Below are positions 18,775 through 47,890 of a DNA stretch of 64,000 bases, piece after piece; the first letter of the stretch is position 1; every line of letters starts with the position of its first letter. Source of the DNA: an uncultured virus (IMG/VR IMGVR_UViG_3300028833_000062) (taxonomy: Duplodnaviria > Heunggongvirae > Uroviricota > Caudoviricetes). Location: IMG/VR virus record IMGVR_UViG_3300028833_000062. One strand, 5' to 3'. Below the pieces are notes generated by a model. It had not been told where the DNA came from. It did not search any database and saw only the letters and a program-made list of their open reading frames with translations. Both the position numbers and the translations under genes were made by a program.

Positions 18775-18807
18775 AAACAGGAACTAATCATTAGTTCCTG
18801 TTTTTTT
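18773..18807. terminator. bidirectional terminator
   Basis: AAAAACAGGAACTAAT-c-ATTAGTTCCTGTTTTT. Confidence 0.8.
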
Positions 18808-19689
18808 ATATTCTATTTGTTTAGCATCATCATCTATTTTTATAAACATTTCTGCTTGTTTTTTCATTTTCTCTCCATTTTTACCAGATAAATCTTTTTT
18901 AACTTTAGGTAAATCTATTGGTTGTTTTTCTTTTAAAAATGAATCAACCATTTTTTCTTGATCAAATATAAATTTACCTTCTGAGTCTTTTTTAATTTTT
19001 ATTACTGGAGAAGTTTTATATTTACCACCTTGTATTCTACCATATCCAGCTGAATAACCAATCCATACTGTATCAATAAAATTATTAAAGTGAGGATATT
19101 TATTATTTAATAAATCTGTCAATGTTTTATATGCAGCTTTATGATTAGGTATTAAAACTGTTTCTTCATCAACATATCTATCTCTTACTCTATTATTTAT
19201 TTTAGCAACTTCTAAATTACAAAGAACCCAAACAAGAGTTACATTATATCCAAGAGTTTTGGCACGTGTTGCAATTTCAGTAATATCTTCTATTTTACCA
19301 GATACTCTATCAAAAAGAAGATTAGGAAGAATTTTTGAATTATTAGCTTCTTTATTTGGATTTTGTTTATTTCTAAATATCAAATTAATCTGTTTATCTT
19401 TCCAACCATGATCTTTAACTCTCATATGAAGTTCTGTAACATCTTCTGGATTTTTAAAATCAAAGTTTTTTAATTCATCTTTAAGTTTACCTTGATTTAA
19501 AAGTTTTATATATTTGCCTTTTAAATCATCAACATCATATGTTTTAAAATCAGCATCTATAATATTTTTTATAAATCCTTTTCCACTTCCAGGTCCACCA
19601 GCAAGAATAATACATTCACCATAAGTTGGTGTTTTCTTCTTAAAACCAACTACAGTATTTTCAAATATAAAATCTAATAATTTTTTCAT
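18784..19689 (-). CDS. P-loop kinase (zeta-toxin/AAA_33-like) with capsid-targeting-like N-terminus
   Basis: Walker A AGGPGSGKG, DVDD, LLFD, RVRDR lid; N-terminus MKKLLDFIFE. Confidence 0.75.
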   Translation of the reverse strand: MKKLLDFIFENTVVGFKKKTPTYGECIILAGGPGSGKGFIKNIIDADFKTYDVDDLKGKYIKLLNQGKLKDELKNFDFKNPEDVTELHMRVKDHGWKDKQINLIFRNKQNPNKEANNSKILPNLLFDRVSGKIEDITEIATRAKTLGYNVTLVWVLCNLEVAKINNRVRDRYVDEETVLIPNHKAAYKTLTDLLNNKYPHFNNFIDTVWIGYSAGYGRIQGGKYKTSPVIKIKKDSEGKFIFDQEKMVDSFLKEKQPIDLPKVKKDLSGKNGEKMKKQAEMFIKIDDDAKQIEYKKTGTND

Positions 19690-19696
19690 ATATTAA

Positions 19697-20167
19697 TTAT
19701 CTTTTTTTTCTAAATACAATTACAATTACACTTGTAAAATTTGAATAATAAATAAATTCATTATTATCTGTTTCAAATGTTGAACCTAAACTAGTTGTTT
19801 CTTCAGATAATCTTGCTTTTATATATTTATACCAATTTGGAGATGTTATATAATTTCTATAATAATTTTTTATTACATCTTCATCAGTAATTGTAACAAA
19901 TTTATCTAATTTTTTCTTTTTTATTGCTGCCCATATATGTTTATCCATATATAGTTTATCATTAATTAGACATTCAACTTCTTCTATTGATTCAATTTCA
20001 TTTTTTCTTACCCAATCTTCAAAAGATTTTAAAATATCTTTAATCATTGATTGATCAAGATTTAAACAACAAATATCTGTCATTATTGAAACAACAGTAT
20101 TTTTTAAATTTTTATTATCCTTTGTCAAATGTAACTTTTCAAATATATATGAATTAATCTTCTTCAT
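19697..20167 (-). CDS. KLHL-leader family protein
   Basis: MKKINSYIFEKLHLTKD. Confidence 0.75.
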   Translation of the reverse strand: MKKINSYIFEKLHLTKDNKNLKNTVVSIMTDICCLNLDQSMIKDILKSFEDWVRKNEIESIEEVECLINDKLYMDKHIWAAIKKKKLDKFVTITDEDVIKNYYRNYITSPNWYKYIKARLSEETTSLGSTFETDNNEFIYYSNFTSVIVIVFRKKR

Positions 20168-20558
20168 TTTTCTTAATTAAATAATCTATATATTTATTAC
20201 CATATCTTTTTCCTTTTTCTGGTAAAAAACTACCCTTTCTTATATATAAAGTATTTGATGAATTAATATTTTCTTTATCAATAAGATCTTTTATATCAAG
20301 AGTAATTTTTTTAAATCTATCTTCAGTAAGATTACTTGAAAATTCTAATCTTAAAAAATTAGCATCTCCCCAATCACTTCTTGTATATAAAGATTGTTTT
20401 TGAATATCTAATAATTCTATAGTATAATTTAATTTTGACTTTGAAAAATATTCTTTAATAACATCTTTTATAATATTAAATATATCATTATTAAAAGAAT
20501 TTTTTATATTCTTATTTAAATGTAATTTCTCTATTATATATTGACTTAAACTATTCAT
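20154..20558 (-). CDS. KLHL-leader family protein
   Basis: MNSLSQYIIEKLHLNKN. Confidence 0.75.
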   Translation of the reverse strand: MNSLSQYIIEKLHLNKNIKNSFNNDIFNIIKDVIKEYFSKSKLNYTIELLDIQKQSLYTRSDWGDANFLRLEFSSNLTEDRFKKITLDIKDLIDKENINSSNTLYIRKGSFLPEKGKRYGNKYIDYLIKKNEED

Positions 20559-21228
20559 GATACCAAGAAGGTGGATTTTTTTCTAAAGGACAATTATTAA
20601 ACATAAAACCCATATCAGTAACATTACTTACATCCCATTTAGATATATCTCCATTAAATTTTGATTTAGTAAACATATCAGACATACTTTTAACATTACT
20701 TACATCCCATTTAGATATATCTCCATTAAATTCAGATTTATAAAACATATCAGACATACTATTAACATTACTTACATCCCATTTAGATATATCATTATTA
20801 AATTGAGAATATTGAAACATTTTTTCCATATTAGTAACATTACTTACATCCCAATTAGATATATCTTGATTAAATTTAGACTCGGAAAACATACTTTTCA
20901 TATTAGTAACCTTGCTTACATCCCATTTTGATATATCTCCATTAAATGGAGAATATTCAAATATATGACTCATATCAGTAACATTACTTACATCCCATTT
21001 TGATATATCTCCATTAAAATTAATATTTTGTAATATACAGAACATATCAGTAATTTCACTAACATCAATATCATTTAAATCAGCATCATTTCCTCTTTCT
21101 TCAATTAACTTCTTAATTAAAGATCTAAGTTCATCTCTATCTTTAGGATGATAATGATATACTACTTTTTTAATATTATCTCTATTTAAATGTAACTTTT
21201 CTAATATATATGTATTAAGTTCTTTCAT
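20551..21228 (-). CDS. KLHL-leader protein with DUF285 (BspA-like) repeats
   Basis: Start 21228 MKELNTYILEKLHL; about 6 tandem 24-aa FNGDISKWDVSNVTxM repeats. Confidence 0.85.
   Translation of the reverse strand: MKELNTYILEKLHLNRDNIKKVVYHYHPKDRDELRSLIKKLIEERGNDADLNDIDVSEITDMFCILQNINFNGDISKWDVSNVTDMSHIFEYSPFNGDISKWDVSKVTNMKSMFSESKFNQDISNWDVSNVTNMEKMFQYSQFNNDISKWDVSNVNSMSDMFYKSEFNGDISKWDVSNVKSMSDMFTKSKFNGDISKWDVSNVTDMGFMFNNCPLEKNPPSWYHE
20600..21065 (-). repeat. 72-nt tandem coding repeats (DUF285)
   Basis: Recurrent ACATTACTTACATCCCATTT unit at about 72-nt period. Confidence 0.8.
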
Positions 21229-21248
21229 AAATGGCATATTCTTTATTA

Positions 21249-21291
21249 TATATAAAAATAATTGAATTTTTCTATATTAATACTATATTAA
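21249..21291. promoter_or_regulatory. back-to-back late (-) and early (+) promoters
   Basis: TATATAAAAATA at 21249-21260; TTGAAT(21262)-N15-CTATATTA. Confidence 0.7.
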
Positions 21292-21299
21292 ATGTGGAT

Positions 21300-21656
21300 A
21301 TGAAAGTATTAAAACATAGAAATAATTGGTGTTGGGGACATAGTACAATAATTGTACTAAATGGTGGTAAAGGAATTGTTACTGTTTCATTTGAAAATGA
21401 TAATCCAAATGAAGCAACAATAACTGGTTTAAGTGTACATGAAAAATATAGAAATAAAGGACTTGGTACAGAATTGGTAAAACTTGCTGAAGAAGAAGCA
21501 AAAGAATTTAAAGTAAAAAGAATTATACTTTTTAGTGATGAAAATACATTTACATATAATTGGTATCAACGTCTTGGTTATAAAAGAGCATTTGACAGAG
21601 TATATATAGAATCACCACAAGTAAAAGAATTATCAAAAGATATTATATATGAGTAG
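21300..21656 (+). CDS. GNAT-family acetyltransferase
   Basis: LSVHEKYRNKGLGTELV (motif A), WYQRLGY (motif B); start ATG at 21300. Confidence 0.85.
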   Translation: MKVLKHRNNWCWGHSTIIVLNGGKGIVTVSFENDNPNEATITGLSVHEKYRNKGLGTELVKLAEEEAKEFKVKRIILFSDENTFTYNWYQRLGYKRAFDRVYIESPQVKELSKDIIYE

Positions 21657-22320
21657 AGAAGTTAAGAAATATAAATTCAATAAAAATCATATTGAGATTT
21701 TTACTATTGAAAATCCAGAGATGCCTATTCCAAAGTGGCCAGCTTTTGAACAGGTATCTGCTAATTCATATTCTTATTCTCATAATTATGGTTTATATCA
21801 GAAAGACGAATATAAAACTATAAAGAAAGAATCTAAACTTGGTTTTTATTACTATTCTAAAGTTAGGGTTCATCAGCCAGGTAAAACATTTAGTGGAGTA
21901 ATTAGTAGAACTATTGTGACATTTCCTATAGCAGGAGAAAAGAATATGTATTATCAGCTTAAATATGTTACTCAGTATGATGATAATAAAATTGGTGGAG
22001 AAGATGGTCTAAGACCTTGGGATATTTATCCTGGTGATAAGAATTTTCCTGATAATATGCTTGAAGGTCTTATTAAAGATGTAAATGAATTCTTTGCAAT
22101 AGCTGAAACATCATGTTCTGATTTTTATAATACTAGTAGTAGATATTATTATACTAAGGAAGATAAAAGTACAATATCTGTAAAGGCTGTAAAAAATAAA
22201 GTATTCACTGAATTGTTTGGAAATCCTAATGGTCCAAGATTTCAGACAGATCTAGAAAAGATTCTATCACATGGATTTGATCCTAAATATAGTTTTAGAA
22301 AAGATAAGGAGAAAAAATAA
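21649..22320 (+). CDS. hypothetical protein
   Basis: 223-aa ORF. Confidence 0.7.
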   Translation: MSREVKKYKFNKNHIEIFTIENPEMPIPKWPAFEQVSANSYSYSHNYGLYQKDEYKTIKKESKLGFYYYSKVRVHQPGKTFSGVISRTIVTFPIAGEKNMYYQLKYVTQYDDNKIGGEDGLRPWDIYPGDKNFPDNMLEGLIKDVNEFFAIAETSCSDFYNTSSRYYYTKEDKSTISVKAVKNKVFTELFGNPNGPRFQTDLEKILSHGFDPKYSFRKDKEKK

Positions 22321-22477
22321 TGTTTAATGATGGACAAGTGTTGACACCAGATAAATGTTTTGAACAAGCATTACGTGATGCATTTAATACATTTTATACA
22401 AATTATAATAAGTATAAAAGTTGGATGGAAAATGAACAAAAATATCGTTATTGTGACGATGATGATGAATATTAATT

Positions 22478-23149
22478 ATGGGACGATATGTATTAATAAC
22501 AAATATTTGGGGTCGTAAACCTAGACAGATTACTTCATACTATTCTGAATGGTGTGATTTTGATATTAATAAAAATCCTATCTTTGTAGATGATGAAAGA
22601 TATGAATTTGATACTCTTGAAGAACTTAATGAACATATTAAGCTCTTTAAAGAGATATGTAAGGATTATGAAAGACCATCTACAGAAACAGTTGGTTATA
22701 GTAGATGGGAGAAATCTAAGAAGGATATTTTTGATAGTCCTAATAAAAGAAAGTATGGATATCTATATGGTGATAGAGAAACCATGAGACTTGTATGGGG
22801 TGGTGATAAATTATATAACTATAATAAAAGTACTAATACTTTAAAACTTTATGATATTCTTTTTAGAGGAGCAGATGAAATTCCTAAAGATTATAAATGG
22901 GATGATGGAGAATATGAAGGATGGCTTCAATATCGTTGGGGTGATGGAAAAAATGCTGTAGGTTATGTTGAACCAGAAAAGCCTAAAAAGAATGATGAAG
23001 TTATTGATGAAGTTATTAATGAAGATGAAGTAGAAGATACTTCATACTATGATGATTCATTTGATAATTCATTTGCAGAAGAAATTGAAAATGCTTATGC
23101 AAAACTTGAAGATAAAGAATTAGTTAAAAAACTTGAAGATAGATGGTAA
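22478..23149 (+). CDS. hypothetical protein with acidic tail
   Basis: 223-aa ORF. Confidence 0.7.
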   Translation: MGRYVLITNIWGRKPRQITSYYSEWCDFDINKNPIFVDDERYEFDTLEELNEHIKLFKEICKDYERPSTETVGYSRWEKSKKDIFDSPNKRKYGYLYGDRETMRLVWGGDKLYNYNKSTNTLKLYDILFRGADEIPKDYKWDDGEYEGWLQYRWGDGKNAVGYVEPEKPKKNDEVIDEVINEDEVEDTSYYDDSFDNSFAEEIENAYAKLEDKELVKKLEDRW

Positions 23150-23384
23150 AAAATTAAAGATATGAAAAAATTTGGAACTAAAGGATATATTGGTAAACAT
23201 GTTTATGCTGGTGGTGAATTAAATGGTATTTGGGGAACCATTGTTGGAATAGAGCCAGATGAGGATTTTGAAGATCATATTTGGTATATCGTAAAAGATG
23301 ATGAATATGGTGGATTACATAAATATGATTTATGTGAAATTAAAGAACAAGTAATAACCACAAAATTAGTACCGTTACATTAAT

Positions 23385-23732
23385 ATGAGAGACAAAGATT
23401 ATCGTAGAAGGCAAGAAGCTTCTCATTTTAATAAGAGGCTTAAATTTTATTCTATTTATAAACCAGATGAACATGCTCCACGTTCTAATGGTATGATGAA
23501 AAGAAAAGACCCAGTTGAAATTGATGATATTAAAGATGAAAGATGGGTTAATAAACTTAAGAATGGAGATGTAAAGTTTAAGTGGATGGATAAATGGAAC
23601 AAGAAGTTTTGTGATAAAGTTAGAAGGAATCTTCAGAAAACCGTTGATTATCAACTTAAACCACATAGATGGTATGATAGAAAACATGTAAATGCACAAG
23701 CAAAAGGTTATCCAATTAATGATGAAGAATAA
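23385..23732 (+). CDS. basic hypothetical protein
   Basis: Arg/Lys-rich ORF within an operon. Confidence 0.6.
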   Translation: MRDKDYRRRQEASHFNKRLKFYSIYKPDEHAPRSNGMMKRKDPVEIDDIKDERWVNKLKNGDVKFKWMDKWNKKFCDKVRRNLQKTVDYQLKPHRWYDRKHVNAQAKGYPINDEE

Positions 23733-26593: not shown

Positions 26594-27763
26594 ATGCTTA
26601 TGAGAAATACAGGTGTTATTTCAATGGGTATCAAAACACCCATTATAAGAGAAGGAGATGATCTTGCTAAGATTGTTGTTAATTCTGTTCTTAATGCTAC
26701 TCTTGAAGATAGCAAATTTATAGATGTTCCTGATGAAACAACAAAATCTGGTTGGAGAATTGAAGAAGTAAAATCATATAATCTTAATGATAAAGATGTT
26801 ATTGGTATTACTGAAAGTGTAGTTGCAAGAAGTCTTGGTAATTATGTAACAGTTGATGATATTGGACTTGATCTTCAATTGAAATTTGGTTCAAATGTAA
26901 ATTATGTTATAGTAAATCCTATTTATAGTAGAAATAGGTTTAGTATGATTCTTAAGGCTATTGCAAGAGCTTCTAATAATCTTGTAGTAATATATATGCC
27001 AGATGCTGATGAGGTTGGTAATCCTTCTGGAGTAAATCAGTTTACTGGTGTAAATATGAAAGAATATTATACAGAACTTGTAAATAAAGAAAATAGAAAA
27101 TGTGTAATAATTGATCATTCTCTTGGAGATAATAGTGAAGAAGAAAAACAATATACAATTCCTAATGCTGTATATATTTATTGTGGTCTTCATGATTATG
27201 AGCAATGGAAAGAAGATTATGGTGATGATACACATATAACTCTTGCTGATATTTGTAAGAATAGATGTGATTACGGTCTTCTTGGTTCTAATAAAGCAAC
27301 TGAAGAGAAACTTAAACTTTTCCCTACTAGACAAACTTCTCAGGTTCTTGTTGAAAATGTTCAACAGATGATTTTTGATAAGACTGGTAAGAAAGTTGAA
27401 GTAATGGTTTATGGTGATGGTTGTTTCAAAGATCCTGTTGGCGGTATTTGGGAATTCGCAGATCCAGTAGTTTCTCCTGCATTTACTTCTGGCCTTGTAG
27501 GTACACCAAATGAAATTAAGATTAAGGCTTTCGCCGATGATAAATTTGCTAATCTTACTGGTGATGAACTTACATCAGCTCTTAAGAATGAAATTAAATT
27601 AAAGGATGCAAATCTTGTAGGTAACATGGCAGCTGAAGGAACTACTCCTCGTAGATTCACTGATTTACTTGGTTCATTAATGGACTTGACAAGCGGTAGT
27701 GGTGATAAGGGAACACCTGTTGTTCTTGTACAACATTACTTTGAAAATTATTCTATGGATTAA
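26594..27763 (+). CDS. CofE-like (F420-0:gamma-glutamyl ligase family) protein
   Basis: TPIIREGDDLA, GITESVVAR, YGDG..KDP..IWE.ADP, DLLGSLMDLTSGSGDKGTPVV. Confidence 0.8.
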   Translation: MLMRNTGVISMGIKTPIIREGDDLAKIVVNSVLNATLEDSKFIDVPDETTKSGWRIEEVKSYNLNDKDVIGITESVVARSLGNYVTVDDIGLDLQLKFGSNVNYVIVNPIYSRNRFSMILKAIARASNNLVVIYMPDADEVGNPSGVNQFTGVNMKEYYTELVNKENRKCVIIDHSLGDNSEEEKQYTIPNAVYIYCGLHDYEQWKEDYGDDTHITLADICKNRCDYGLLGSNKATEEKLKLFPTRQTSQVLVENVQQMIFDKTGKKVEVMVYGDGCFKDPVGGIWEFADPVVSPAFTSGLVGTPNEIKIKAFADDKFANLTGDELTSALKNEIKLKDANLVGNMAAEGTTPRRFTDLLGSLMDLTSGSGDKGTPVVLVQHYFENYSMD

Positions 27764-28916: not shown

Positions 28917-28942
28917 AATTGATAATATTTAATATAACAGAA

Positions 28943-31396
28943 ATGGACGTTGTAATAACTTATGTAAATATAACTAATAGATTTAAGGAACAATATAATA
29001 AATATGTAAAGAAAGAACTTGAAGAAAATAGATTTAGAAGTTATGATACACTTGAACTTCAAGTAAAAGGAATTAGAAAATATCTTCCATATATAAAAAA
29101 TATATTTATTGTAGTTTCAGAATTAGAACAAGTAGAAGGATTGAATTTATCAGATTGTAAGATTATTACACATGATATGATAATTCCTTCTAAATATCTT
29201 CCATGTTTCAATTCATGTACAATTGAAATGTTCTTACATAAAATTCCAGAACTTGATGAAGAATTTTTATATTTTAATGATGATATGTTTATAATTGATA
29301 ATGTACCATCTACTTATTGGTTTAAAAATGGTAAACCTTGTTTATCTCCAGAAATATATGATTTTGATATAAAAAATAATTTAAGTACATTTAATACTAG
29401 ATGTTTTAATTCTACACAATTAGTTGCACAAATATTAAAAATTAACAATAAATATAAAAATAAATTAATTAAACAATCACATTGTCCTAAACCATATTTA
29501 AAATCAACTTGTAATAAAGTATTTAATAAGAATATATTTTATATTTTACACTCATTAACAAGGACAAGACATAGTAAAAATTATAATTGTTATTTATTTA
29601 ACGATTATGATTATCTTTCTGATAATTGTAATATAATAAAAAGAAATTATATATATTTAGAAAATGAATCAATTAATGATATAATAAATACAATTAATAA
29701 AAAAGAATATCAAATTATATGTATTAATGATAATAATGAATATATAAATTTTATTAAATTTAAAACAGAATTAAAAAATTCATTAGAATCAAATATATTA
29801 AATAAAAAATATGAAATACCAATTGAGGTAACACAACCTATAATTGATGAATTTAATTTATCTAATAAGTATGAAAAACTTATAATTTCATTAACATCAT
29901 ATCCCGCTAGAATTAAATATGTTAAAGATGTTCTTGAATCATTAGTTAATCAAGATGTGCCATATAATTTATACCACATTGTATTAGTATTAGCTATACC
30001 AGAATTTCCAAATAAAGAAAATGATTTACCTGATGAATTAATTGAATTTATTAATTTATATCCAGAATTAATTGAAATTTTATGGTATGAAAGAAATATT
30101 AAAAGTCATAAAAAACTAATACCAACATTAAAAAAATATCCAAATAATCCAATACTTGTATGTGATGATGATGTATATAGACCACAATGTTGGTTAAAAA
30201 TGTTTATTTGTGATCATTATAAATATCCGAATGATATTATATTTGGAACAAGTTCATGGTATTTTGGTGATAAATATAAATTAATGAGATTTAAAGAATT
30301 TAAATGTGAATCATCAGGAAGTATAAATAATTTACCATCTCAAATATTTAAAACTGCAAAACCAGCAAATGGATTAGGTGGATGTTTATATCCAGCTAAT
30401 ACATTTACAGATAAAAGATTCTTTGATGAAAATTTATTTATGAAGTTATCTCCTACATCAGATGAATCTTGGCAATATTGTTTTAATATAATGGATAATA
30501 AAACTTTTAGACAAACTTCAAAAATTATTGATTATAGTAAATATTTTTTAAATGGAACACAAGAAATAAATACATCATTACATAAAGTAAATAATTATAC
30601 TGAAATAAATGAAAGATTATTTAATGAATTTCCAAAATTTAAAAAATCATTAAATAAAAGAATGAAAGAATTTATTATATCATTTACCACCCATGGTATT
30701 AGGGTAAAATATATAAATAAAACATTAAATAGTTTATTAAATCAAACATTAAAACCATATAAAATTGTTTTAACATTATTTAAAGAAGATGAAAAATATT
30801 TAACTAATGAAACATTAGAAATAATATCAAAAAATAAAAGTAAAATAGATTTAATTATTTGTGATGAAAATCTTGGTCCACATACTAAATATTTTTATGC
30901 AATGAAAAAATATAAAAATTATGCGGTAATTACCGTTGATGATGACCATGAATATGATAATGATTTATGTGAATCTTTATGGAAATCATATATTAATCAT
31001 CCAAATTTAATTTCAGCAAGAAGGGTACATTTTATTAAAAGAGATATTAATGGTAATACTTTACCATATAGAGAATGGAAATATAATTGTAAAAATATAT
31101 TAAAACCAAATATAGAACTTTTTGCTACTGGTGTTGGGGGAGTAATTTATCCACCAGATATATTAAAAATTTCTGATGATAATTTACCTGAAATAAGACA
31201 ATGTTTATGGGCTGATGATATTTATTTAAAATGGTTAGAAAACAAATTAAATATTTCTATTATATGGTGTAAAAATAATAATCCAGAAGGAAATAGAATT
31301 AATGAAGAAGATATTATAAATAGTGCATTATATAAAGTAAATACATCTAAAGAAAATGGCAGAAATGACAAATACCTAAAAATATTTAAGTTATAA
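28943..31396 (+). CDS. Stealth-family hexose-1-phosphate transferase fused to two GT-A-like domains
   Basis: CR1 MDVVITYVN, CR2 RFR..FNSCTIE..EEFLYFNDDMF, CR4 IICIND; two copies of IIS(L/F)T(S/T)..RI...DDD..G.GG..YP. Confidence 0.82.
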   Translation: MDVVITYVNITNRFKEQYNKYVKKELEENRFRSYDTLELQVKGIRKYLPYIKNIFIVVSELEQVEGLNLSDCKIITHDMIIPSKYLPCFNSCTIEMFLHKIPELDEEFLYFNDDMFIIDNVPSTYWFKNGKPCLSPEIYDFDIKNNLSTFNTRCFNSTQLVAQILKINNKYKNKLIKQSHCPKPYLKSTCNKVFNKNIFYILHSLTRTRHSKNYNCYLFNDYDYLSDNCNIIKRNYIYLENESINDIINTINKKEYQIICINDNNEYINFIKFKTELKNSLESNILNKKYEIPIEVTQPIIDEFNLSNKYEKLIISLTSYPARIKYVKDVLESLVNQDVPYNLYHIVLVLAIPEFPNKENDLPDELIEFINLYPELIEILWYERNIKSHKKLIPTLKKYPNNPILVCDDDVYRPQCWLKMFICDHYKYPNDIIFGTSSWYFGDKYKLMRFKEFKCESSGSINNLPSQIFKTAKPANGLGGCLYPANTFTDKRFFDENLFMKLSPTSDESWQYCFNIMDNKTFRQTSKIIDYSKYFLNGTQEINTSLHKVNNYTEINERLFNEFPKFKKSLNKRMKEFIISFTTHGIRVKYINKTLNSLLNQTLKPYKIVLTLFKEDEKYLTNETLEIISKNKSKIDLIICDENLGPHTKYFYAMKKYKNYAVITVDDDHEYDNDLCESLWKSYINHPNLISARRVHFIKRDINGNTLPYREWKYNCKNILKPNIELFATGVGGVIYPPDILKISDDNLPEIRQCLWADDIYLKWLENKLNISIIWCKNNNPEGNRINEEDIINSALYKVNTSKENGRNDKYLKIFKL

Positions 31397-33191: not shown

Positions 33192-34238
33192 ATGAAAAGT
33201 TTAAGTGAATACATGAATGAATCAGTCCTTACGAAAGAACAGGTTCGTAAGGACTATGATGTTATAGATTCTCTTGATACTAAGAAGGAAAAGCAAGCAA
33301 TGGCAGCCGAATATGGTGTTGAATCAGTAAAGAAAGATGAAATTAAGCATGCTATTCTTCTTAAGCTTCGTGAGCTGAGAAAATCTACTTCTTCTTTTGA
33401 TGAAGAAGATTATAGAGATTTTTATCGTCTCCTTCCTGATTCTTTAGCAAAACTTCCTGAATATCTTGCTGAAGAAAATCCTAAGTTTGTTCTTTTTCTA
33501 AAAGATTATTTCCTTGAACATAGAATGAAAGGCAAACTTAAGAATTGGATTGGTATTAATCCTGGTAGAGATGCTAACTATTCTCTTTCCTATGCAGATA
33601 TTCATACTGTAAAATTCTATAATAAAATTCTTGAGTTTATTGCTAATAATACTCCTAAGACACGTACTGTCAAGGATGAGATTTTTGATTCTCTTGTAAA
33701 TAAGTTCACTGACCTTCTTGCTGATTATAAAGAAGAATATCTTAAAAAGGTTGAAGCTTTTGCCAAAAAGCGTTATACTGAAATTCTTCCTAAAGAGCTT
33801 GAAGAACTTAAGAAAAAAAGAAATGAATCTAAAGAAAGACTTGATAATCTTAATTGGAGAAAAAACAGAAATGAATGGAATTCTGAATATAAGATTAAGA
33901 CTTCTCTTGATTCAAAGGTAGAAAGAATTTCAAAGATTTTCGAAAAATATACACAAAAAGAATATATTGATGAATGTGTAAAACATGCTACTGAGGAATT
34001 TGAATCTTCAATTAGAGAGCTTTCTGATAGAATTGTAAAAGATGAGCTTGAGGTTGATAAGCTTGAAGTTAAATCTGTACATGATGATCCTAAGATTTTT
34101 AAGATGAAAATTACAGATGGAATTAAGAATCTCTATTGTAGAAGTATTATCGCTGCTGAGTTTTCAAGTGTTATGATTCCTCATTATCGTTTCATTATTA
34201 CCAATAGAACTAAAGACGATTCACATTATAATGATTAA
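33192..34238 (+). CDS. helical hypothetical protein with capsid-targeting-like N-terminus
   Basis: MKSLSEYMNE; 348 aa; promoter CTGAAT-N15-CTATATTA at 33143. Confidence 0.75.
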   Translation: MKSLSEYMNESVLTKEQVRKDYDVIDSLDTKKEKQAMAAEYGVESVKKDEIKHAILLKLRELRKSTSSFDEEDYRDFYRLLPDSLAKLPEYLAEENPKFVLFLKDYFLEHRMKGKLKNWIGINPGRDANYSLSYADIHTVKFYNKILEFIANNTPKTRTVKDEIFDSLVNKFTDLLADYKEEYLKKVEAFAKKRYTEILPKELEELKKKRNESKERLDNLNWRKNRNEWNSEYKIKTSLDSKVERISKIFEKYTQKEYIDECVKHATEEFESSIRELSDRIVKDELEVDKLEVKSVHDDPKIFKMKITDGIKNLYCRSIIAAEFSSVMIPHYRFIITNRTKDDSHYND

Positions 34239-38607: not shown

Positions 38608-39513
38608 ATGATTAAAGTTGGTAATTATAAAATTGAAGTAAAGCATTTTCCTGATGGTACACAATGCTTAATGAATATTGATTTTAATAAAATTGCAATT
38701 AATCCAAGTTATGCATCTATTACTTGGAATTATGAATCTGATGAAGAGCTTGTTACTCTTATTTATCTTGTAAATTATATTAGGAGTAAGGCACCTAAAT
38801 ATCCAATTTATCTTTTTATGCCTTATATTCCTAATGCAAGAATGGATAGGACAAAGAATCCTGGTGAAGTATTTACTCTTAAGTATTTTGCAAACATTAT
38901 CAATAGTCTTAATTTTGATTGTGTCAGTGTTCTTGATCCTCATTCTGATGTATCTGTTGCTCTTCTTAATAATGTTATGGTAATTAATCCTGATGATTAT
39001 ATTGCTAAAACCATTCAGACAATAAAAGATGCTAACAATATTGAGAATGATAAGGAAATTGTACTTTATTTTCCTGATGCTGGTGCATATAAAAGGTATA
39101 AGGATATTGAATGCCTAAAGCCTTATGAGAAGATTTACGGTCAGAAAGTTCGTGACTGGAATACTGGTAAGATTACTGGTCTTACTATTGTAGATAAGGA
39201 TAATAATACTATAATTGGATCATTTGAGAATAATTATATCCTCATGATTGATGATATTATTTCTTATGGTGGGACAATGTATTATTCTGCTGTTAAGATT
39301 AATGAATTTAATCCTAAGAAAATTTATGCTTATGCAACACATGTAGAGCCTAAGTCTTTCTGGGATATTGATAATGGTACTTTTAGAAAGGCATTTGGTT
39401 ATAGTAATAATGATGGTAGTGAAAATAAACAAATAGTAACAAAACTTTTTACTACAAATTCTATTTATAATATTGATGCAAATAATTCAGTAGTTCCAAT
39501 TACAATTAATTAA
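38608..39513 (+). CDS. ribose-phosphate pyrophosphokinase-like protein (possible ADPR-PP synthetase, Adps)
   Basis: HFPDGT, MPYIPNARMDR, LDPHS, FPDAGAYKRY, PRPP-binding loop MIDDIISYGGT. Confidence 0.85.
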   Translation: MIKVGNYKIEVKHFPDGTQCLMNIDFNKIAINPSYASITWNYESDEELVTLIYLVNYIRSKAPKYPIYLFMPYIPNARMDRTKNPGEVFTLKYFANIINSLNFDCVSVLDPHSDVSVALLNNVMVINPDDYIAKTIQTIKDANNIENDKEIVLYFPDAGAYKRYKDIECLKPYEKIYGQKVRDWNTGKITGLTIVDKDNNTIIGSFENNYILMIDDIISYGGTMYYSAVKINEFNPKKIYAYATHVEPKSFWDIDNGTFRKAFGYSNNDGSENKQIVTKLFTTNSIYNIDANNSVVPITIN

Positions 39514-39715: not shown

Positions 39716-41266
39716 ATGGAAATTAATGCAATGCTTTTGAAGGATTTTTATAAGATGGTACATTTGTCTATGATTCCTTCTAACATGACAAAATCTGTTT
39801 CTTATTTTACTCCTCGTAAGAGTCGAGTAGATTTGTGGCCTAAGGTTGTTAATTTTGGTCTTCAAGCTTTCATTAAAGAGTGGTTGATTGATAATTTTAA
39901 TAAGACATTCTTCAATCGTTCAGAGGAAGATGTTGTAAATGAATATCGTCGTATTTGTGAAAATACTATGGTTAAGGAAAATTACGGCCTTGACCGTATT
40001 GTTGAACTTCATCGTCTTGGTTATCTTCCTATTGAAATTTGGGCTCTTCCTGAAGGTGTAGAAGTTCCTATGCATGTTCCTATTTTTGGTATTACTAATA
40101 CTCATCCTGATTTTGCTTGGCTTGGTCAGGCTCTTGAGAGTCTTATTTCTGCTGAGCTTTGGTACCCTATGATTACTGCTACTGTTGGTCATACTTATCG
40201 TAAGATTGTTGATGAGTGGTATGATAAAACAGTTGATGATAATGTTCCTCATCGCCGTGCTCTTGGAAACTTTGATTTCCGTGGAGATATGGGTGTAGAT
40301 GCAAGTCTTAAGGCTGCTGGTGGATGGCTTCTTTCATTTGTCAATACTGCAACTGTTCCTGCAATTCCTTGGATGGAAAAGATGTATAATTGTAACTGTG
40401 AAAAGGAAGAAGTTGGTTTTGGTGCTGTTTCTACTGAACATTTTGTAATGTGTTCTAATTCTGCACTTGATACCGTTCTTTATCCTGATGATGTATATGA
40501 ATATAAGGATATTGATCCTCACCGTGAAAGAGTTTTCATCAAGAAGCTTCTTACTGAGCTTTATCCTAATACTTCTTTCTCCTGTGTTTCTGATAGCTAT
40601 GATTATTGGAATGTAGTTGAGAATATCCTTCCTACTCTTAAAGATGAGATTCTTGCTCATAATGGTTGTATACTTGTCCGTGGTGACTCTGGAGATTGTG
40701 TAGATGTAGTTACTAAGACTGTATTTAAACTTTGGGATATCTTTGGTGGCACTGTAAACTCAAAGGGTTATAAGGTTCTGAATCCTCATATTAAGGCTCT
40801 TTATGGAGATTCTATTACTGTAGAACGTGCCTGGAGAATTTTCTCTATTCTTGAGGAAAATGGTTTTGCTGCAAATAATGTTTCTCTTGGTGTAGGTAGT
40901 TTCAGTATGCACTGTATTGAGGAAGATGGAATGTTAAAGCCTTTTACTCGTGATACTTTCTCTTCTGCAATTAAGGCTGTTTATGCAGAGTTTACTGATG
41001 AAGATGGAAATATCATTCCTATGAATGTATATAAGGATCCTAAGACTGACCGTGATACTGGAGCAGGATTTAAGAAGAGTCAGAAGGGTTGTTGTGTTGT
41101 ATTTAAGGATGAAAATGGTGAATATCAATATACAGATGAACATGATTGGCTTCACGCTTCTAATTCTTATATTCAGGAACTTCGTCCTATCTTTAGAAAT
41201 GGTGAACTTCTTGTAGATGAATCTCTTAATGATATTCGTCAGAGACTTAATGAAAATAAATTTTAA
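39716..41266 (+). CDS. NAMPT/NadV-family phosphoribosyl- or ADP-ribosyl-transferase
   Basis: DFYKMVH, NFDFRG, STEH, VSDSYD, VRGDSGD, LYGDSIT, GVGS, TRDTF, KDPKTD..KKSQKG. Confidence 0.9.
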   Translation: MEINAMLLKDFYKMVHLSMIPSNMTKSVSYFTPRKSRVDLWPKVVNFGLQAFIKEWLIDNFNKTFFNRSEEDVVNEYRRICENTMVKENYGLDRIVELHRLGYLPIEIWALPEGVEVPMHVPIFGITNTHPDFAWLGQALESLISAELWYPMITATVGHTYRKIVDEWYDKTVDDNVPHRRALGNFDFRGDMGVDASLKAAGGWLLSFVNTATVPAIPWMEKMYNCNCEKEEVGFGAVSTEHFVMCSNSALDTVLYPDDVYEYKDIDPHRERVFIKKLLTELYPNTSFSCVSDSYDYWNVVENILPTLKDEILAHNGCILVRGDSGDCVDVVTKTVFKLWDIFGGTVNSKGYKVLNPHIKALYGDSITVERAWRIFSILEENGFAANNVSLGVGSFSMHCIEEDGMLKPFTRDTFSSAIKAVYAEFTDEDGNIIPMNVYKDPKTDRDTGAGFKKSQKGCCVVFKDENGEYQYTDEHDWLHASNSYIQELRPIFRNGELLVDESLNDIRQRLNENKF

Positions 41267-42421: not shown

Positions 42422-43270
42422 ATGAAAGGTATAAAAGATTTTTTAAAAGATAAACATAATTCACATGATATTGAATATTGGTCTAAAGAAAATCATTTAT
42501 TAAATGATATAAATGAATTTTTTGGAGAAGATATTCCTATTTATATAAAAGAAAAATTAATGAATGATGAATATGTTGATTACATCTATGAAAATCTTAA
42601 ATCTCATGATGCTGAAAAATTAAAGAAAAAATTAAAGAAAGAGTATGGTGATAGTATAAGTTTTCAGGATTATTCAGGTAAAGAAAAGAAATCTTTTATA
42701 ATTATACTTAATGATGATAATCTTCTTGATTTTTATAATCCAGATAATGATGAAAATGCTAATTTTGAGAAGATTGAAAAATTCAATAATATATTAAGTT
42801 TCTTTAATTATTATGTTTCATATAATGATGAAGATAAAGGAAAGAAATATCTTTTTATTGAACCAAGATATTCAGATAATGTAAGTGATGAAGTATTTAA
42901 TTCTCATAAATATATTTATCATTTTACAGATAAATCTTCAGGAAGGAAAATATTAGAAACTGGATTAAGAATTAGAAAATCAGATTATAGAGAATATCCA
43001 CAAAGAATATTTCTTTATGTTACAGATAAGAAGATAGAAGATGATATAGAAAATATATCTAAATTTATACTTAAAGTATGTAATGGACATTTGATAAAAA
43101 GATATGGTTTATCTATATTAAGAATTGAAAATAATGGTAAATTAGATTTATATAATGATACAGCAATGGAAGAAGATGAAGCTGTATTTACATACAATAA
43201 TATTCCATATCAATATATAAAGAAAGTTAATGTTAATTTAACTTATGAAGATTTAATTAAATATAAGTAA
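42422..43270 (+). CDS. putative ADP-ribosyltransferase-fold (Tpt1/KptA-like) protein
   Basis: C-terminal domain YHFT..KILETGL..RIFLY..ILRI..AVFT.NNIP. Confidence 0.55.
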   Translation: MKGIKDFLKDKHNSHDIEYWSKENHLLNDINEFFGEDIPIYIKEKLMNDEYVDYIYENLKSHDAEKLKKKLKKEYGDSISFQDYSGKEKKSFIIILNDDNLLDFYNPDNDENANFEKIEKFNNILSFFNYYVSYNDEDKGKKYLFIEPRYSDNVSDEVFNSHKYIYHFTDKSSGRKILETGLRIRKSDYREYPQRIFLYVTDKKIEDDIENISKFILKVCNGHLIKRYGLSILRIENNGKLDLYNDTAMEEDEAVFTYNNIPYQYIKKVNVNLTYEDLIKYK

Positions 43271-43818
43271 ATTATGAGTTTTCCAAAAAGAAATATAAAA
43301 AAATCAGATCCAAGTGATACTGATTTTAAAATAAAAAGACTTATTGAAGGAGATACTTTCTATAATTATAATGGAGAATTAAATCATATAGTTCATTTAT
43401 TTGCTGATAAAAATATTGATATTGTAGTTTATAAACATTGGAATCCATCTAGAGGGTGGTTATATGAAGCAGATACTCTTGAATTAGTTTTATATAGAAT
43501 TTGTTTACTTTATAAAAATTTAGCTGATAAATCTAAATCAAATAATTTAAGAAAGAAATTTTTTGAATTGAATAATATTTCATATGAAGGTTATTGATTG
43601 TTTTGGAAAGGAGTTAAAAGATGGTGATGATATTCTTATAGCTAGATATGATGAGAATATGTTACCAATTATAAATTGTGGAATTATTCTTGAGATGACA
43701 GATAAATATATGGTTTATTCTGTACAAGAATGGAAAGGAGATGATGAGATAATAACTAATATAAAAGTATCATTTAAAGATAATTGTCAATTTAAAGATA
43801 TATATAAAATAAGATAAT

Positions 43819-44307
43819 ATGTTTACTAAAGCAGAAAGATCAAGTTTCCCATATTGGTTTGCACACTGGGCAGCCTATCAAATGACTGCATTAAATTGTA
43901 AAGCATGGAAATTCAAATATTTATTCCATGATGCAGAAAAGCCTTGGTTGAAGTTGTTTTTACCATATAAGAAGGTTCAGACAATTCATAGGAAGACTAA
44001 TAAACATCATCCAGAATGGTTGGAGAACAAACTTGAAGAAATGATAAATAAACATGAAGGTATTGGTTCATATGATGTATTCAAATTTTTAAATAAGTTT
44101 GATTATGAAGGAGCAATTCTTGATTGGGAATGTTGTCATTTTACAAAAGTAGAAGAACCACTTGATGCACATGATGAATATAAAAGATTACTTAATCATG
44201 ATACTTTTAGTAAGAAATATCCATGTATAACTAAATATTGTTATAATGAATTTAGTAAAAGATTAATAGATGCTATAAAAAAATTAGGACTTGAAAATGA
44301 ATATTAA
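43819..44307 (+). CDS. HD-like (DUF5662-type) phosphohydrolase
   Basis: H..HDAEK..HRKTNKHHPEW..ILDWE. Confidence 0.6.
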   Translation: MFTKAERSSFPYWFAHWAAYQMTALNCKAWKFKYLFHDAEKPWLKLFLPYKKVQTIHRKTNKHHPEWLENKLEEMINKHEGIGSYDVFKFLNKFDYEGAILDWECCHFTKVEEPLDAHDEYKRLLNHDTFSKKYPCITKYCYNEFSKRLIDAIKKLGLENEY

Positions 44308-44656
44308 TTTAGAACCATCAATAATACCTTATGATAATGGAGTAATTGAAATATGTTTTAGTCCAGAATTTCAAAGGATATATGATGCAGAGGTTGATTA
44401 CATAGATTATATAATGGATTGTCATTATGAAGATCCTATTCATTGTAAAATATTTACTTTTAAAGATATTTATCAATTTAATAAAGAGATAGAAGATTTA
44501 AAAGACATGTTTAGATTTGAAATGATGAATTCATATACAATTGAAGCAATTAAAGTTAAAGTAATGGATTTATGTAATAAATTTATAAATGGTAGTATGA
44601 TGGCAAAATCCAGTGATTACTATTTTATGTGGGACAATCAAAAAAATTATTAAGAT

Positions 44657-45418
44657 ATGAAATTTAATGTAGAAAAAGCAACTGAAGGAATTATTAAATG
44701 GATTCAGAATTGGTTTGATAAAAATGGTAAAGGATGTAATGCAGTAATCGGTATCAGTGGAGGTAAAGATAGTACTGTATGTGCAGGACTTCTTGTTAAG
44801 GCTCTTGGAAAAGATAGAGTAATTGGTGTACTTATGCCTAATGGAGGACAAGCAGATATTAATGATTCATATAAAGTATGTGATTTTCTTGGTATTAATA
44901 AATATGTTATTAATATTGAACAAGCATATCAACATATTCTTCGTAGTATGGTATTTAATTTAATAAATGTTTCAAAACAGACAGAAGAAAATCTTCCTCC
45001 AAGACTTAGAATGAGTGTTCTTTATGCTGTTTCTCAGTCTGTAAATGGTAGAGTATGTAATACATGTAATCTTTCTGAAGATTGGGTAGGTTATTCTACT
45101 CGTTATGGTGATAGTGTTGGAGATTTCAGTCCTCTTAGCAATTATACAGTTACTGAAGTAAAAGAGATTGGACATTATCTTGGTCTACCTGCTGAACTTG
45201 TTGATAAAACTCCTATTGATGGACTTTGTGGAAAATCTGATGAAGAAAATCTTGGATTTACTTATGCTGAGCTTGATCAGTATATTAGAAATGGTATTCT
45301 TCCTTCACCTGAAAAGAAAAAAATAATTGATGATAAACATGTTAAGAATGCATTCAAACTTTGTTTAATGCAAGTAGCTCCTCAATATGGATATCCAGAA
45401 ACTTTAAATTATGATTAA
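44657..45418 (+). CDS. nadE: NH3-dependent NAD+ synthetase
   Basis: GISGGKDS, GVLMP, NL.PRLRM, TCNLSE..VGY.T.YGD, KTP.DGL, DE.NLG.TY..LD; no glutaminase domain. Confidence 0.92.
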   Translation: MKFNVEKATEGIIKWIQNWFDKNGKGCNAVIGISGGKDSTVCAGLLVKALGKDRVIGVLMPNGGQADINDSYKVCDFLGINKYVINIEQAYQHILRSMVFNLINVSKQTEENLPPRLRMSVLYAVSQSVNGRVCNTCNLSEDWVGYSTRYGDSVGDFSPLSNYTVTEVKEIGHYLGLPAELVDKTPIDGLCGKSDEENLGFTYAELDQYIRNGILPSPEKKKIIDDKHVKNAFKLCLMQVAPQYGYPETLNYD

Positions 45419-45654
45419 TAAAGAAGACCTTTTAAAATATATAGATGAATCTCTTGATGATTTAGAAGATGAACAAGAATATAATGAACATTTATATAAA
45501 GCAGGAGATAATCCATATTGGGTACCAAAAGATAAAGGTCATCTACCATTAGATAGTTGGTATGGATATGAATCTTTAATTTTACAATTAGAAAATTTAA
45601 AGAAAAGAATACTTAAAGAAGATTTTAGTTATTCTTGGAAGAAAAGAGAATATA

Positions 45655-45687
45655 AAAAAGAGGAAGATTAAACTTCCTCTTTTTTTA
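45655..45687. terminator. bidirectional terminator
   Basis: AAAAAAGAGGAAG-attaaa-CTTCCTCTTTTTT. Confidence 0.8.
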
Positions 45688-46234
45688 TTATTGAAACCAT
45701 TTTATTTAATGTGTCTTCATCTAATTTTTCATAATTATCAGGTTTTGGATCAAATTTAGATGCACCATCTTTTAATTTTACTACAGGAGTATTTGTATTT
45801 TTTTGAGAACTTTTCCAAAAATGAGCATATAAATCAAATTCCATTTTTTCTTCTCTAATTTCTTCTAAAATATTTAAACATTCTTCTTCTGGAATAATTA
45901 CTTTAGTATATCCATTACCAGAATGAAAAGCATAATTATATTTATCAATTTTAGAAACATCTGTTCTATTAATTTTTATATAATCTGTTTTATAATAAGT
46001 AGCTAAATTTAAATGAGTTAAATATTCAAATTTAATAAGTGTTTTTGATATATTTGTTATTTTTATAACTTCAATTTTTATTTTTTCAGTATATCTTGTA
46101 CCTGAGTCACATAAATATAAACAGATATCACCGACTTCATATAAATCAGTTAAATTCTTAATTATTTTATCTTTTACTTTAATATCTTTATTAAGATGTA
46201 GTTTCTCTATTATATATAAATTAAGTAGTTTCAT
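45668..46234 (-). CDS. KLHL-leader family protein
   Basis: MKLLNLYIIEKLHLNKD. Confidence 0.75.
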   Translation of the reverse strand: MKLLNLYIIEKLHLNKDIKVKDKIIKNLTDLYEVGDICLYLCDSGTRYTEKIKIEVIKITNISKTLIKFEYLTHLNLATYYKTDYIKINRTDVSKIDKYNYAFHSGNGYTKVIIPEEECLNILEEIREEKMEFDLYAHFWKSSQKNTNTPVVKLKDGASKFDPKPDNYEKLDEDTLNKMVSIIKKEEV

Positions 46235-46662
46235 TATCTAATATCATGTAATATTATATATTTCATTAATTCATATTCATCTGGTTTATTTCCAAGTTTA
46301 CTTGGTCCATCTGTTATTTTATATGTTCCTGCTGGAGCTTCCCAAGTAGCATTATTACTAAAGCTTGTATTCTTATTATTTATAAATGTTACTTCATATT
46401 TTACAACTGCAGAAACTCCACCATCAGATTCATACCAATATTTTATAATAACTTTCTTAATATTTTTTAATTTACTAGCATATTTTTCATCTTCACTAAG
46501 ATCATTAATAAATTCTTTATAATCATTAAGATTCATTTTATCTCTAAAATCAGTACTTTTTACACCATTTGAATAATGTATATATTCAATATCTATATCA
46601 TTAATTTTAATGTCTCTATTAAGATGAAGTTTTTCTAATATGTAATTATTAATTTGTTTCAT
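46234..46662 (-). CDS. KLHL-leader family protein
   Basis: MKQINNYILEKLHLNRD. Confidence 0.75.
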   Translation of the reverse strand: MKQINNYILEKLHLNRDIKINDIDIEYIHYSNGVKSTDFRDKMNLNDYKEFINDLSEDEKYASKLKNIKKVIIKYWYESDGGVSAVVKYEVTFINNKNTSFSNNATWEAPAGTYKITDGPSKLGNKPDEYELMKYIILHDIR

Positions 46663-47087
46663 TATTCACATTCTTCAATATCTTTATCATAATTAAGAAA
46701 AATTATTACATCATTTATACCACCTTTTGAATCTTTAATTAAAAGACCATCTTTTTCCAATGCCATTATTTCTAATCCTTTTTCAAAAAAGATAGTATTT
46801 ATAAATAGCTTTTTTGCTTTATCAATATAAGGATAATTACAATAACAATCAAATAATTCATCTAAATCTTTAACTTGTTTTTTAGTTTCTTTATAATCTT
46901 CTTCATTAAGATATACATCAAAATTTTTTAAATATGGTCTTTTATCTATATATCTTTCTATTGTTTCACGAAATTTTGGATTTTCATAAATCAATACTTT
47001 ACATACTTTATTATATAATTCTGAAGAAATTTTTAGATTTTTATTAAGATGAAGTTTTTCTAATATGTAATTATCTATTTTTTTCAT
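46662..47087 (-). CDS. KLHL-leader family protein
   Basis: MKKIDNYILEKLHLNKN. Confidence 0.75.
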   Translation of the reverse strand: MKKIDNYILEKLHLNKNLKISSELYNKVCKVLIYENPKFRETIERYIDKRPYLKNFDVYLNEEDYKETKKQVKDLDELFDCYCNYPYIDKAKKLFINTIFFEKGLEIMALEKDGLLIKDSKGGINDVIIFLNYDKDIEECE

Positions 47088-47427
47088 TTGCTCTAAAATT
47101 ATTTATATCATCTGCATGTAATTCTTTAATTCCATTTTTATTTGCCCATTCTCTTGGTGATTCATTATTTAAATCAGTAGGAGTAAAATTATCCCATCGT
47201 TCAATAAATTCATCAACTAAATCTTCAGGAGATACAAATATATAATGATTTCCCAACTTTCCTCTGTTGGTATCCATATAATTAACAATTGCTCTTAAAG
47301 AATTTAATACAACATGACCTTCATCTGTTCTACCAGTTCTAAAAAATAATATATATTTATTATCTTCTATAACAATATTTTTATTAAGATGAAGTTTTTC
47401 TATTATATATTGTTTTAAATTATTCAT
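47071..47427 (-). CDS. KLHL-leader family protein
   Basis: MNNLKQYIIEKLHLNKN. Confidence 0.75.
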   Translation of the reverse strand: MNNLKQYIIEKLHLNKNIVIEDNKYILFFRTGRTDEGHVVLNSLRAIVNYMDTNRGKLGNHYIFVSPEDLVDEFIERWDNFTPTDLNNESPREWANKNGIKELHADDINNFRANEKNR

Positions 47428-47890
47428 GATACCAAGATGGCTTTTTTATTAAATTTGGACAATTATTAAACATATCATTTGTTTTTACATCTTTATTAAT
47501 TTTCCATTCTTCTAATCCTTTACCAGTAAATGAATCACAATTAGCAAACATTCCTGTCATATCTTTTACATTAGATACATCCCATAGTGATAAATCACAA
47601 TTAAACCAATCTGCCCAAGAAAACATACAATTCATTGATACACAGTTTGATACATCCCATTTAGAAATATCAATATTTTTACAATCACTTCCATTAAATA
47701 CTGAATCTAAATTTTTAATATTACTTACATCAATGCAATTCAAATCAGCATTTTTATTATTTTTAGTTAGTTTTTCAATTAAATCTACTAATTCATCTTT
47801 ATTTTGTGGATAATATTTATAATGAGAATTAACATTAATATCTTTATTTAAATGTAATTTTTCTAATATATAATTATTTAATTGTTTCAT
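47420..47890 (-). CDS. KLHL-leader protein with DUF285 repeats
   Basis: MKQLNNYILEKLHLNKD; WDVSN repeats; C-terminus PSWYHE as in 20551..21228. Confidence 0.82.
   Translation of the reverse strand: MKQLNNYILEKLHLNKDINVNSHYKYYPQNKDELVDLIEKLTKNNKNADLNCIDVSNIKNLDSVFNGSDCKNIDISKWDVSNCVSMNCMFSWADWFNCDLSLWDVSNVKDMTGMFANCDSFTGKGLEEWKINKDVKTNDMFNNCPNLIKKPSWYHE

Follow-up and report, generated by a model that had tools for sequence, protein, structure and literature searches.

The subject of this report is a set of leader-bearing genes in a 64,000-nt stretch of DNA from the uncultured virus IMGVR_UViG_3300028833_000062 (26.6% G+C); the whole stretch is called the window here. Eight open reading frames (ORFs) on the minus strand, starting at 20167, 20558, 21228, 46234, 46662, 47087, 47427 and 47890, were found to share the N-terminal leader M[KN]x[LI]xxYI[ILF]EKLHL[NT][KR][DN]. 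On balance, sequence comparison suggests that this shared N-terminus is probably a two-part capsid-cargo leader, used for loading and cleavage, in large low-GC T4-type phages of the ruminant gut. Delivery of the leader proteins as injected anti-defence effectors, which was proposed in a preliminary description of the window, may also occur, but is a much less secure suggestion.

The starts and the motif were as that description had claimed. The back-translated leader pattern TAYATHNNNGARAARYTNCAYYT occurs eight times in the window; over 100 dinucleotide shuffles the mean was 0.01, and none reached eight. BLASTP among the bodies behind the leaders agreed with the claim that they are unrelated except for two DUF285 proteins, and these two are also the only ones with a Pfam or PHROG family.

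A two-part leader

The eight genes had been described as a system of their own. That system is real, and is now seen to be a subset of a wider one in which the leader occurs in a short form of 10 residues and in a long form. The short form (type A) reads MK[ST]hxxYIxE, and the next residue is mostly S, A, E, G or N. Its carriers are enzymes and larger proteins, including a Zeta-toxin-like kinase, an AAA_33 kinase, NDK, an HAD/PNK-like protein and a 1331-aa ResIII protein. The long form (type B) consists of the same ten residues followed by KLHLNKD/N-I-K and is carried by small proteins (median, 148 aa). When a looser N-terminal pattern was used (M, five residues, Y/F/W, I/L/V/M, x, E), 13 of the 119 window ORFs were found to start with it, against 0.32 expected from internal frequencies. 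In the related contigs G001, G002 and G004, which are introduced below, the same pattern stands at 27 of 218, 33 of 218 and 26 of 91 ORF starts, with 0.2-0.5 expected.

Residues were counted in 103 distinct long-leader proteins, collected with a search pattern that allowed E, D or Q at position 10. Position 10 is Glu in all 103. Position 4 is L (52), I (46) or F (5), position 7 is Y (96), F (4) or I (3), and position 8 is I (95), L (7) or M (1). In the second half of the leader, positions 11 to 14 are K (103), L (103), H (93) and L (100), and positions 15 to 17 are N (84), K (94) and D or N (88). In T4, according to the available text of PMC9026906, gp21 cleaves after L/I-X-E, the first ten residues of IPIII are enough for loading, residues 4 and 7 serve in targeting, and residues 8 and 10 serve in processing. 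In the T4 record, IPII and IPIII begin with MKTYQEFIAE, with Tyr at position 4 and Phe at position 7, and the IPI propeptide has 19 residues with an ITE end. All eight window genes have the tag at Met1, hydrophobic or aromatic residues at positions 4 and 7, and L/I-X-E at positions 8-10. Since the residues at positions 4, 7, 8 and 10 match the functional positions of T4, the first half of the leader fits a capsid targeting sequence (CTS). The likeness to the T4 CTS drawn in the preliminary description thus holds for residues 1-10, while residues 11-19 have no T4 counterpart.

The leader was also searched for as a profile, as had been recommended. A 40-column profile returned 532 protein clusters at E ≤ 0.001 among 1.84 billion representatives. 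The motif stands at the protein start in 144 of the best 150 matches. About 14 of these 150 contain about 17 true internal copies, in which [IVL]-x-E-K-L-H-L-N/D-K-D/N-I is kept and the upstream M..L..Y half is lost. In one multi-unit family the internal site aligns in all seven members (7/7), and the number of units varies. In the model of P0126, a multi-unit match (mean predicted local distance difference test score, pLDDT, 53), the first joint (residues 156-168) lies just past a confident domain (residues 21-153), the rest of the model being poor. Judging from their sequences, the internal [IVL]xE-KLHL sites look like processing joints. Because KLHLNKD is kept at the joints without the M..L..Y half, it is constrained independently of the targeting half.

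Structure models suggest that the leader is an appended module. A leader helix (residues 2-12 or 2-13) is modelled with low confidence ahead of a confident domain. In the AlphaFold2 (AF2) model of c188, a long-leader protein of the window (mean pLDDT, 74.9), the leader helix spans residues 2-13, a loose linker spans residues 14-27, and the body begins at about residue 28. In NDK homologs the Pfam domain begins at residue 18, behind a short leader. The c188 body has only five close homologs in 5.8 billion proteins, and the c188 model has no PDB fold match at E ≤ 0.001. An assignment of c188 to Phage_ProQ_C_like was rejected; the Atlas score of 0.88 was under the bar, and Pfam gave no confirmation. 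A complex prediction of the leader (40 aa, 52-row alignment) with the protease-scaffold protein of a relative (583 aa, 30 rows) gave an ipSAE of 0.00 in both uncontrolled runs, which counts neither for nor against binding.

It is a tentative and rather doubtful idea that KLHLNKD/N-I-K is a second separable signal, which after cleavage would give over a hundred unrelated cargo bodies, and every unit freed from a multi-unit cargo protein, a uniform N-terminus and would act on the mature protein, for example in portal and tail exit or in its lifetime in the host. In some bacteria, Lys at the N-terminus acts as a secondary destabilising residue. If the idea were true, the leader would be a programmable three-step tag for "load, release, then deliver or expire", pasted onto new genes by within-leader recombination.

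The second half of the leader was also seen at a C-terminus. A 116-aa ORF of the window, 53245-53595 (+), ends with PDEKLHLNKKR, and P0185, one of the leader-profile matches, similarly ends just past an internal ITEKLHLTK joint. The window ORF may represent a unit that has lost its downstream partner.

Cassette arrays and their genomic setting

The window has eight long and four short leaders in total. The leader genes and the signals flanking the two arrays are as follows.

21249..21260, minus strand: promoter-like 12-mer TATTTTTATATA of array 1, ending 20 nt before the first ATG
20551..21228, minus strand: DUF285a, type B (long) leader and DUF285 repeats with a PSWYHE end (PF03382, E 2.7e-59)
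20154..20558, minus strand: c134, type B leader MNSLSQYIIEKLHLNKNI and orphan body; 8-nt overlap with DUF285a
19697..20167, minus strand: c156, type B leader MKKINSYIFEKLHLTKDN and orphan body; singleton in body clustering
18784..19689, minus strand: Zeta-toxin-like P-loop kinase, type A (short) leader MKKLLDFIFE, last gene of array 1 (PF06414, E 3.2e-7; phrog_5268)
18773..18805, no strand assigned: bidirectional terminator-like hairpin of 15 pairs at the end of array 1, flanked by A/T runs
47911..47922, minus strand: promoter-like 12-mer TATTTTTATATA of array 2, ending 20 nt before the first ATG
47420..47890, minus strand: DUF285b, type B leader and DUF285 repeats with a PSWYHE end (PF03382, E 8.1e-25)
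47071..47427, minus strand: c118, type B leader MNNLKQYIIEKLHLNKNI and orphan body; 8-nt overlap with DUF285b; similarity to c134 in residues 1-18 only
46662..47087, minus strand: c141, type B leader and orphan body
46234..46662, minus strand: c142, type B leader and orphan body
45668..46234, minus strand: c188, type B leader and folded body (AF2 model; five close homologs)
45654..45685, no strand assigned: bidirectional terminator-like hairpin of 13 pairs at the end of array 2, flanked by A/T runs
804..1415, minus strand: 203-aa protein, type A leader MKHLNEYIQE, second gene of a unit behind TATTTTTATATA (2069-2080)
385..801, minus strand: 138-aa protein, type A leader MKNIKEYIKE
33192..34238, plus strand: 348-aa protein, type A-like leader MKSLSEYMNE, without a Pfam family

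The two arrays have the same layout, as had been claimed: the 12-mer, a DUF285 gene with the PSWYHE end, an MNxLxQYIIE gene overlapping it by 8 nt, an MKKI gene, and a hairpin. Neighbouring array genes overlap by 8-17 nt or share one base, and one pair is 7 nt apart. Hairpins were found at the array ends only, with A and T runs on either side. Both DUF285 genes are above the PF03382 gathering score of 25 (198.6 bits for 20551-21228 and 87.3 bits for 47420-47890). Arrays 1 and 2 are alike over about 100 nt, from the 3′ end of the DUF285 gene through the next leader, and are divergent from codon 18. In one further DNA run, 45058-48435 and 48666-49000 are covered by contigs that show few differences. 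Contigs identical to parts of c142, c118 and DUF285b were found in two RNA-library runs; such contigs cannot show transcription, ends or strand.

In G001, G002 and G004, many units have the 12-mer TATTTTTATATA 18-26 nt ahead of their first gene, and it stands at the same distance before many very large, probably structural ORFs. A copy with one mismatch precedes a tail-fibre-like gene at 61365, and the motif is absent before the gp32, NAMPT and RNA ligase genes. The preliminary description had called it a late motif. Its position is certain, exactly 20 nt before both first ATGs, while "late" is an assignment by association. The leader genes form probably late units, in which a single such motif comes first, the ORFs overlap or abut, and a terminator closes the unit. 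One ORF behind TATTTTTATATA, at 1263-5258 (+) of G001 (L036), encodes the 1331-aa ResIII helicase-domain protein with the short leader MMSIFSYINE. By its sequence, this protein is a candidate packaged enzyme of very large size.

The content of the arrays differs between relatives at corresponding sites. In a metagenome-assembled genome (MAG), the locus from DUF1848 (77% identity to the window) to NadE (82%) has seven leader genes against five in the window, and the locus from GNAT (47%) to the kinase (75%) has ten against three. Only two bodies are recognisably homologous between the MAG arrays and the window arrays. Thus, the MAG arrays, which differ in gene number and bodies, bear out the view that the cassette set is expandable and hypervariable at syntenic sites. 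Two sites of a closer relative, L160 and L161, were read on a 47.6-kb metagenome contig (about 82-92% DNA identity; 630 nt read per site). At L161 the DUF285a gene is missing and a DUF285a-type 5′ leader is joined to c134, with the switch within codons 12-15. At L160 another body stands behind the same promoter and leader. It was revealed that cargo varies and that junctions lie in the leader (L161, L160 and arrays 1/2), as had been anticipated. The hybrid leader at L161 supports the earlier suggestion that the leader may double as a recombination point; homogenisation between neighbouring leaders is weak.

The leader DNA pattern was found at 33 loci on 11 IMG/VR contigs and at 111 metagenome loci. 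Among bacterial records, many copies occur in a single low-GC "Clostridia bacterium" MAG, and one further contig was found. The remaining single matches were put down to chance and rejected as evidence of a wider bacterial spread. Among seven single-match loci, L073 has the leader at the N-terminus, L068 has it in frame and not at the N-terminus, and five have no in-frame motif. Clustering of the bodies of 260 distinct long-leader proteins, drawn from all loci, gave 114 clusters, of which 58 are singletons and DUF285 is the largest. One 22-kb stretch holds 26 long-leader genes. The occurrence of short and long leaders on the same body was also rejected, the two mixed clusters being leader variants or alternative starts. 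A blastn search of both arrays against the phage collection gave only weak matches covering 4-11% of the query, and no locus related to the DUF1848 flank was found among viral contigs.

Head genes were found in relatives. Positions 1-25093 of the window are 99.99% identical to the last 25 kb of the 168-kb IMG/VR contig G001, and the remainder of the window extends past the contig end. The relatives G002 (169.6 kb) and G004 (74.6 kb) have the shorter leader pattern 12 and 17 times, respectively, with 0 for a reversed control. In both, one strand carries, in this order, a block of short- and long-leader genes, genes for 60-aa and 220-aa proteins, an S77 protease-scaffold gene, a gp23-like capsid gene, and the tail sheath and tube genes. 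Peptidase_S77 is above the Pfam cut-off in both. The protease-scaffold protein (L046:6051-7802, minus strand, in G004; a homolog in G002) has about nine tandem 12-residue repeats QNWVCEEFAPEV, each with [VI]xE, and its fused family is large, with at least 2498 of 8000 scored candidates at E ≤ 1e-5. The N-terminal region of the gp23-like capsid protein contains IHEIHE followed by S; this protein had no match among PDB sequences.

Other genes of the window are described here for their own sake. T4-type genes encode a gp32-like single-stranded DNA-binding protein, an RnlA-type RNA ligase, NAMPT, PRPP synthase and NadE. A NAD-related set lies at 17806-18396, 38608-39513, 39716-41266 and 44657-45418 (NUDIX hydrolase, PRPP-synthase-like protein, NAMPT and NAD synthase), and the leader arrays adjoin the NUDIX and NadE genes. 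Some genes may be unusual for a phage. These are glycan and cofactor genes at 16011-17582 and 26594-27763 (a GT2 family protein and an F420-0:gamma-glutamyl-ligase-like protein) and at 28919-31396, 47968-48897 and 50692-51909 (an 825-aa Stealth CR2 and GT2 protein, DUF1848, and UDP-galactopyranose mutase). Four adjacent paralogs on the plus strand (7533-8228, 8230-8844, 9157-9567 and 9780-10253) have a common N-terminus of their own, MK[VIT]Q[IL]R...FETNSSS. They make up a second multi-copy family, and a resembling start, MKTSIRQKVFETNSSSVHS, was found on the metagenome contig with 26 leaders. Lipoprotein-like signal sequences (e.g., MKKLIIIICLLIGTITCYSQ) occur on the window ORFs 4262-4900 (+) and 63253-63612 (+), and two lipoprotein-like ORFs lie amid the 26-gene leader array of a relative's contig (Ga0247610_10001836, 9534-12405).

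A proposed route into the head and its rivals

If the shared N-terminus is a capsid-cargo leader, late transcription would yield the cargo proteins, and residues 1-7 (of the CTS-like residues 1-10) would dock them on the prohead scaffolding core. A prohead protease of the gp21 family (Peptidase_S77) would cut after Glu10 and at the internal [IVL]xE-KLHL joints. KLHLNKD/N-I-K (residues 11-19) would stay on the cargo as its new N-terminus and would mark the joints of multi-unit proteins; it may help the protease to recognise the site from the prime side, or it may serve as a signal on the mature protein. The bodies, now starting with KLHLNK, would remain inside the head, from which they may pass into the host together with the DNA. 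The cassette arrays would allow fast gain, loss and replacement of bodies, with some junctions in the leader.

Several observations weigh against this route. The leader is borne by 11-29% of ORFs, which are many proteins for one capsid. The bodies are mildly acidic, with a median isoelectric point (pI) of 5.4, against 5.6 for other small ORFs of these phages. Their composition, not being basic, gives no hint of DNA-bound internal proteins. In long leaders, Glu10 is invariably followed by Lys, while T4 IPII and IPIII have Ala there. Because this Lys is unlike both the short leaders and T4, cleavage of the long form may be poor or may fail altogether. Neither the window nor G001 (about 59% complete by CheckV) yielded a protease, scaffold or capsid gene, and the ORFs tested in 25094-64000 of the window had no Peptidase_S77 match; the lack of a protease gene of the window phage itself is put down to its incomplete genome. 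The window arrays sit among the metabolic genes NUDIX, GNAT, NadE and DUF1848, and linkage to head genes was found only in the more distant relatives. The late timing is known by motif association, and most of the large ORFs behind TATTTTTATATA have no PHROG family. Finally, the hybrid-leader contigs are from metagenome assemblies, in which assembly error is possible.

These points partly favour an alternative that is possible but not likely, namely that the leader is an uncut docking or oligomerisation helix with a non-capsid purpose, binding a phage or host partner or a chaperone, and that its carriers are late accessory proteins in the cell. Residues 2-13 are modelled as an amphipathic helix, Glu10 is followed by Lys, the window arrays are not beside head genes, and the bodies are not basic. 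However, the invariant residues are those of the T4 targeting and processing sites, with Glu always at position 10. The internal joints keep [IVL]xE, which would be needless for docking, and the leader genes of G002 and G004 lie directly upstream of the protease-scaffold and capsid genes. The same location and strand would also suit core or scaffold-accessory proteins like T4 gp67 and gp68, which would be degraded or expelled at maturation and not delivered. The core proteins of T4 are cleaved, and for the most part they exit the head (PMC9026906, available text), and the long-leader bodies have no recognisable enzyme domain apart from DUF285. Nevertheless, structural core proteins are usually conserved, while here 58 of the 114 clusters are singletons and syntenic arrays differ, and c188 and the first unit of P0126 are modelled as compact folded domains. 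I consider that explanation improbable.

Is the conservation one of nucleic acid rather than protein? The first 55 nt or so could be a translation or regulatory element or a recombination substrate, with a peptide that has no function. Leader codon use does depart from that of the bodies. CTT encodes L12 in 59 and L14 in 69 of the 103 genes, although 67% of the Leu codons in the bodies are TTA. At E10, GAG has a share of 34%, compared with 6% in the bodies, and TAC at Y7 has a share of 20%, compared with 4%. Moreover, the junction of one relative lies inside the leader DNA. On the other side, synonymous codons occur in all combinations in the leader (TTA/CTT/CTA, GAA/GAG, TAT/TAC) although the residues are fixed, and synonymous identity is 0.745 between neighbouring leaders and 0.718 between genomes. 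Concerted evolution of neighbouring leaders was rejected as weak on the same values (0.745 against 0.709 and 0.718). Since synonymous codons vary and neighbours are hardly more alike, the peptide is what is selected. The second half is also kept as protein at internal joints, far from start codons. Selection on the DNA alone is thus very improbable. The codon skew itself spans leader codons 7-15 of long-leader genes (e.g., window 47846-47872). One idea is that the CTT preference avoids T TTA AAT, an in-frame classical slippery heptamer that CAT-TTA-AAT would make. It is also highly unlikely that the genes are a fast-evolving paralogous family whose N-terminus is the slowest-changing remnant without a separate role. 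Arrays 1 and 2 share a duplicated segment made of a DUF285 gene and the next leader, and DUF285 is the largest cluster, as such a family would have it. However, the leader is found on independent folds (DUF285 and, in the short form, NDK, P-loop kinases, HAD/PNK-like proteins and the 1331-aa ResIII protein), and similarity ends abruptly at codons 18-20, without decay.

Comparison with known systems

The leader motifs EKLHLNK, KLHLNKD, YIIEKLHL and EKLKLNK were not found in the literature text searched, and no report of a KLHL leader was among the literature matches listed on the CTS and on T4-like hyperplastic regions. Four features are new: a leader in two parts, its reuse where polyprotein units join, the extent of the expansion, and a junction inside a coding leader. 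CTS-bearing variable internal proteins have already been published for T4, which limits the novelty. If the capsid-cargo explanation is true, it would be possible to read from sequence which proteins an entire clade of large uncultured gut phages packages, and this cargo would consist of hundreds of body families turning over at conserved loci as anti-defence genes do. The second module at polyprotein joints would offer a testable lead on the release or handling of cargo once it is loaded. The leader is also a candidate tag for loading foreign proteins into phage heads.

Encapsulin cargo-loading peptides are short terminal peptides that send unrelated cargo into an HK97-fold shell. They are unlike the leader in having other sequences, being usually C-terminal and not being removed by proteolysis. 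They are not known to share descent with the leader.

In the giant phages phiKZ, 201phi2-1 and SPN3US, many head and inner-body proteins carry propeptides and are processed by diverged gp21 homologs that cut after Glu; some of these proteins are ejected (PMC9026906). As far as the available text of that source goes, cleavage there follows S/A-X-E with few other determinants, and a common leader is not described; here, I-X-E lies within a 20-residue leader. All 103 long leaders have I, L or M at position 8, which does not fit the S/A-X-E motif of the phiKZ type.

PeSL (promoter-early stem-loop) cassettes mediate modular shuffling in hyperplastic regions of T4-like phages (Comeau, Arbiol and Krisch 2014, PMC4122927, available text). 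As in that system, a short repeat beside variable genes coincides with indel or replacement junctions between related phages, and junctions inside the repeat were found here. In contrast, PeSL is a non-coding terminator and promoter, whereas the repeat described here is a coding 5′ end, constrained as protein. No non-coding stem-loop with an early promoter lies between the array genes.

The closest comparison is the CTS, which lets T4-like phages load varied proteins (PMC9026906 and PMC3012670, available texts). As in T4 IPI, IPII and IPIII, an N-terminal tag of about ten residues is placed on unrelated small proteins, and the cargo genes are variable. The carriers are T4-type phages, and two relatives encode a Peptidase_S77 protease. 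Unlike the T4 proteins, the long-leader proteins, which are known here from sequence alone, have a second near-invariant module, KLHLNKD/N-I-K, and a Lys behind the putative cut site. They also form a far larger set in long operon-like arrays, and the multi-unit proteins among them reuse the second half of the leader at their joints.

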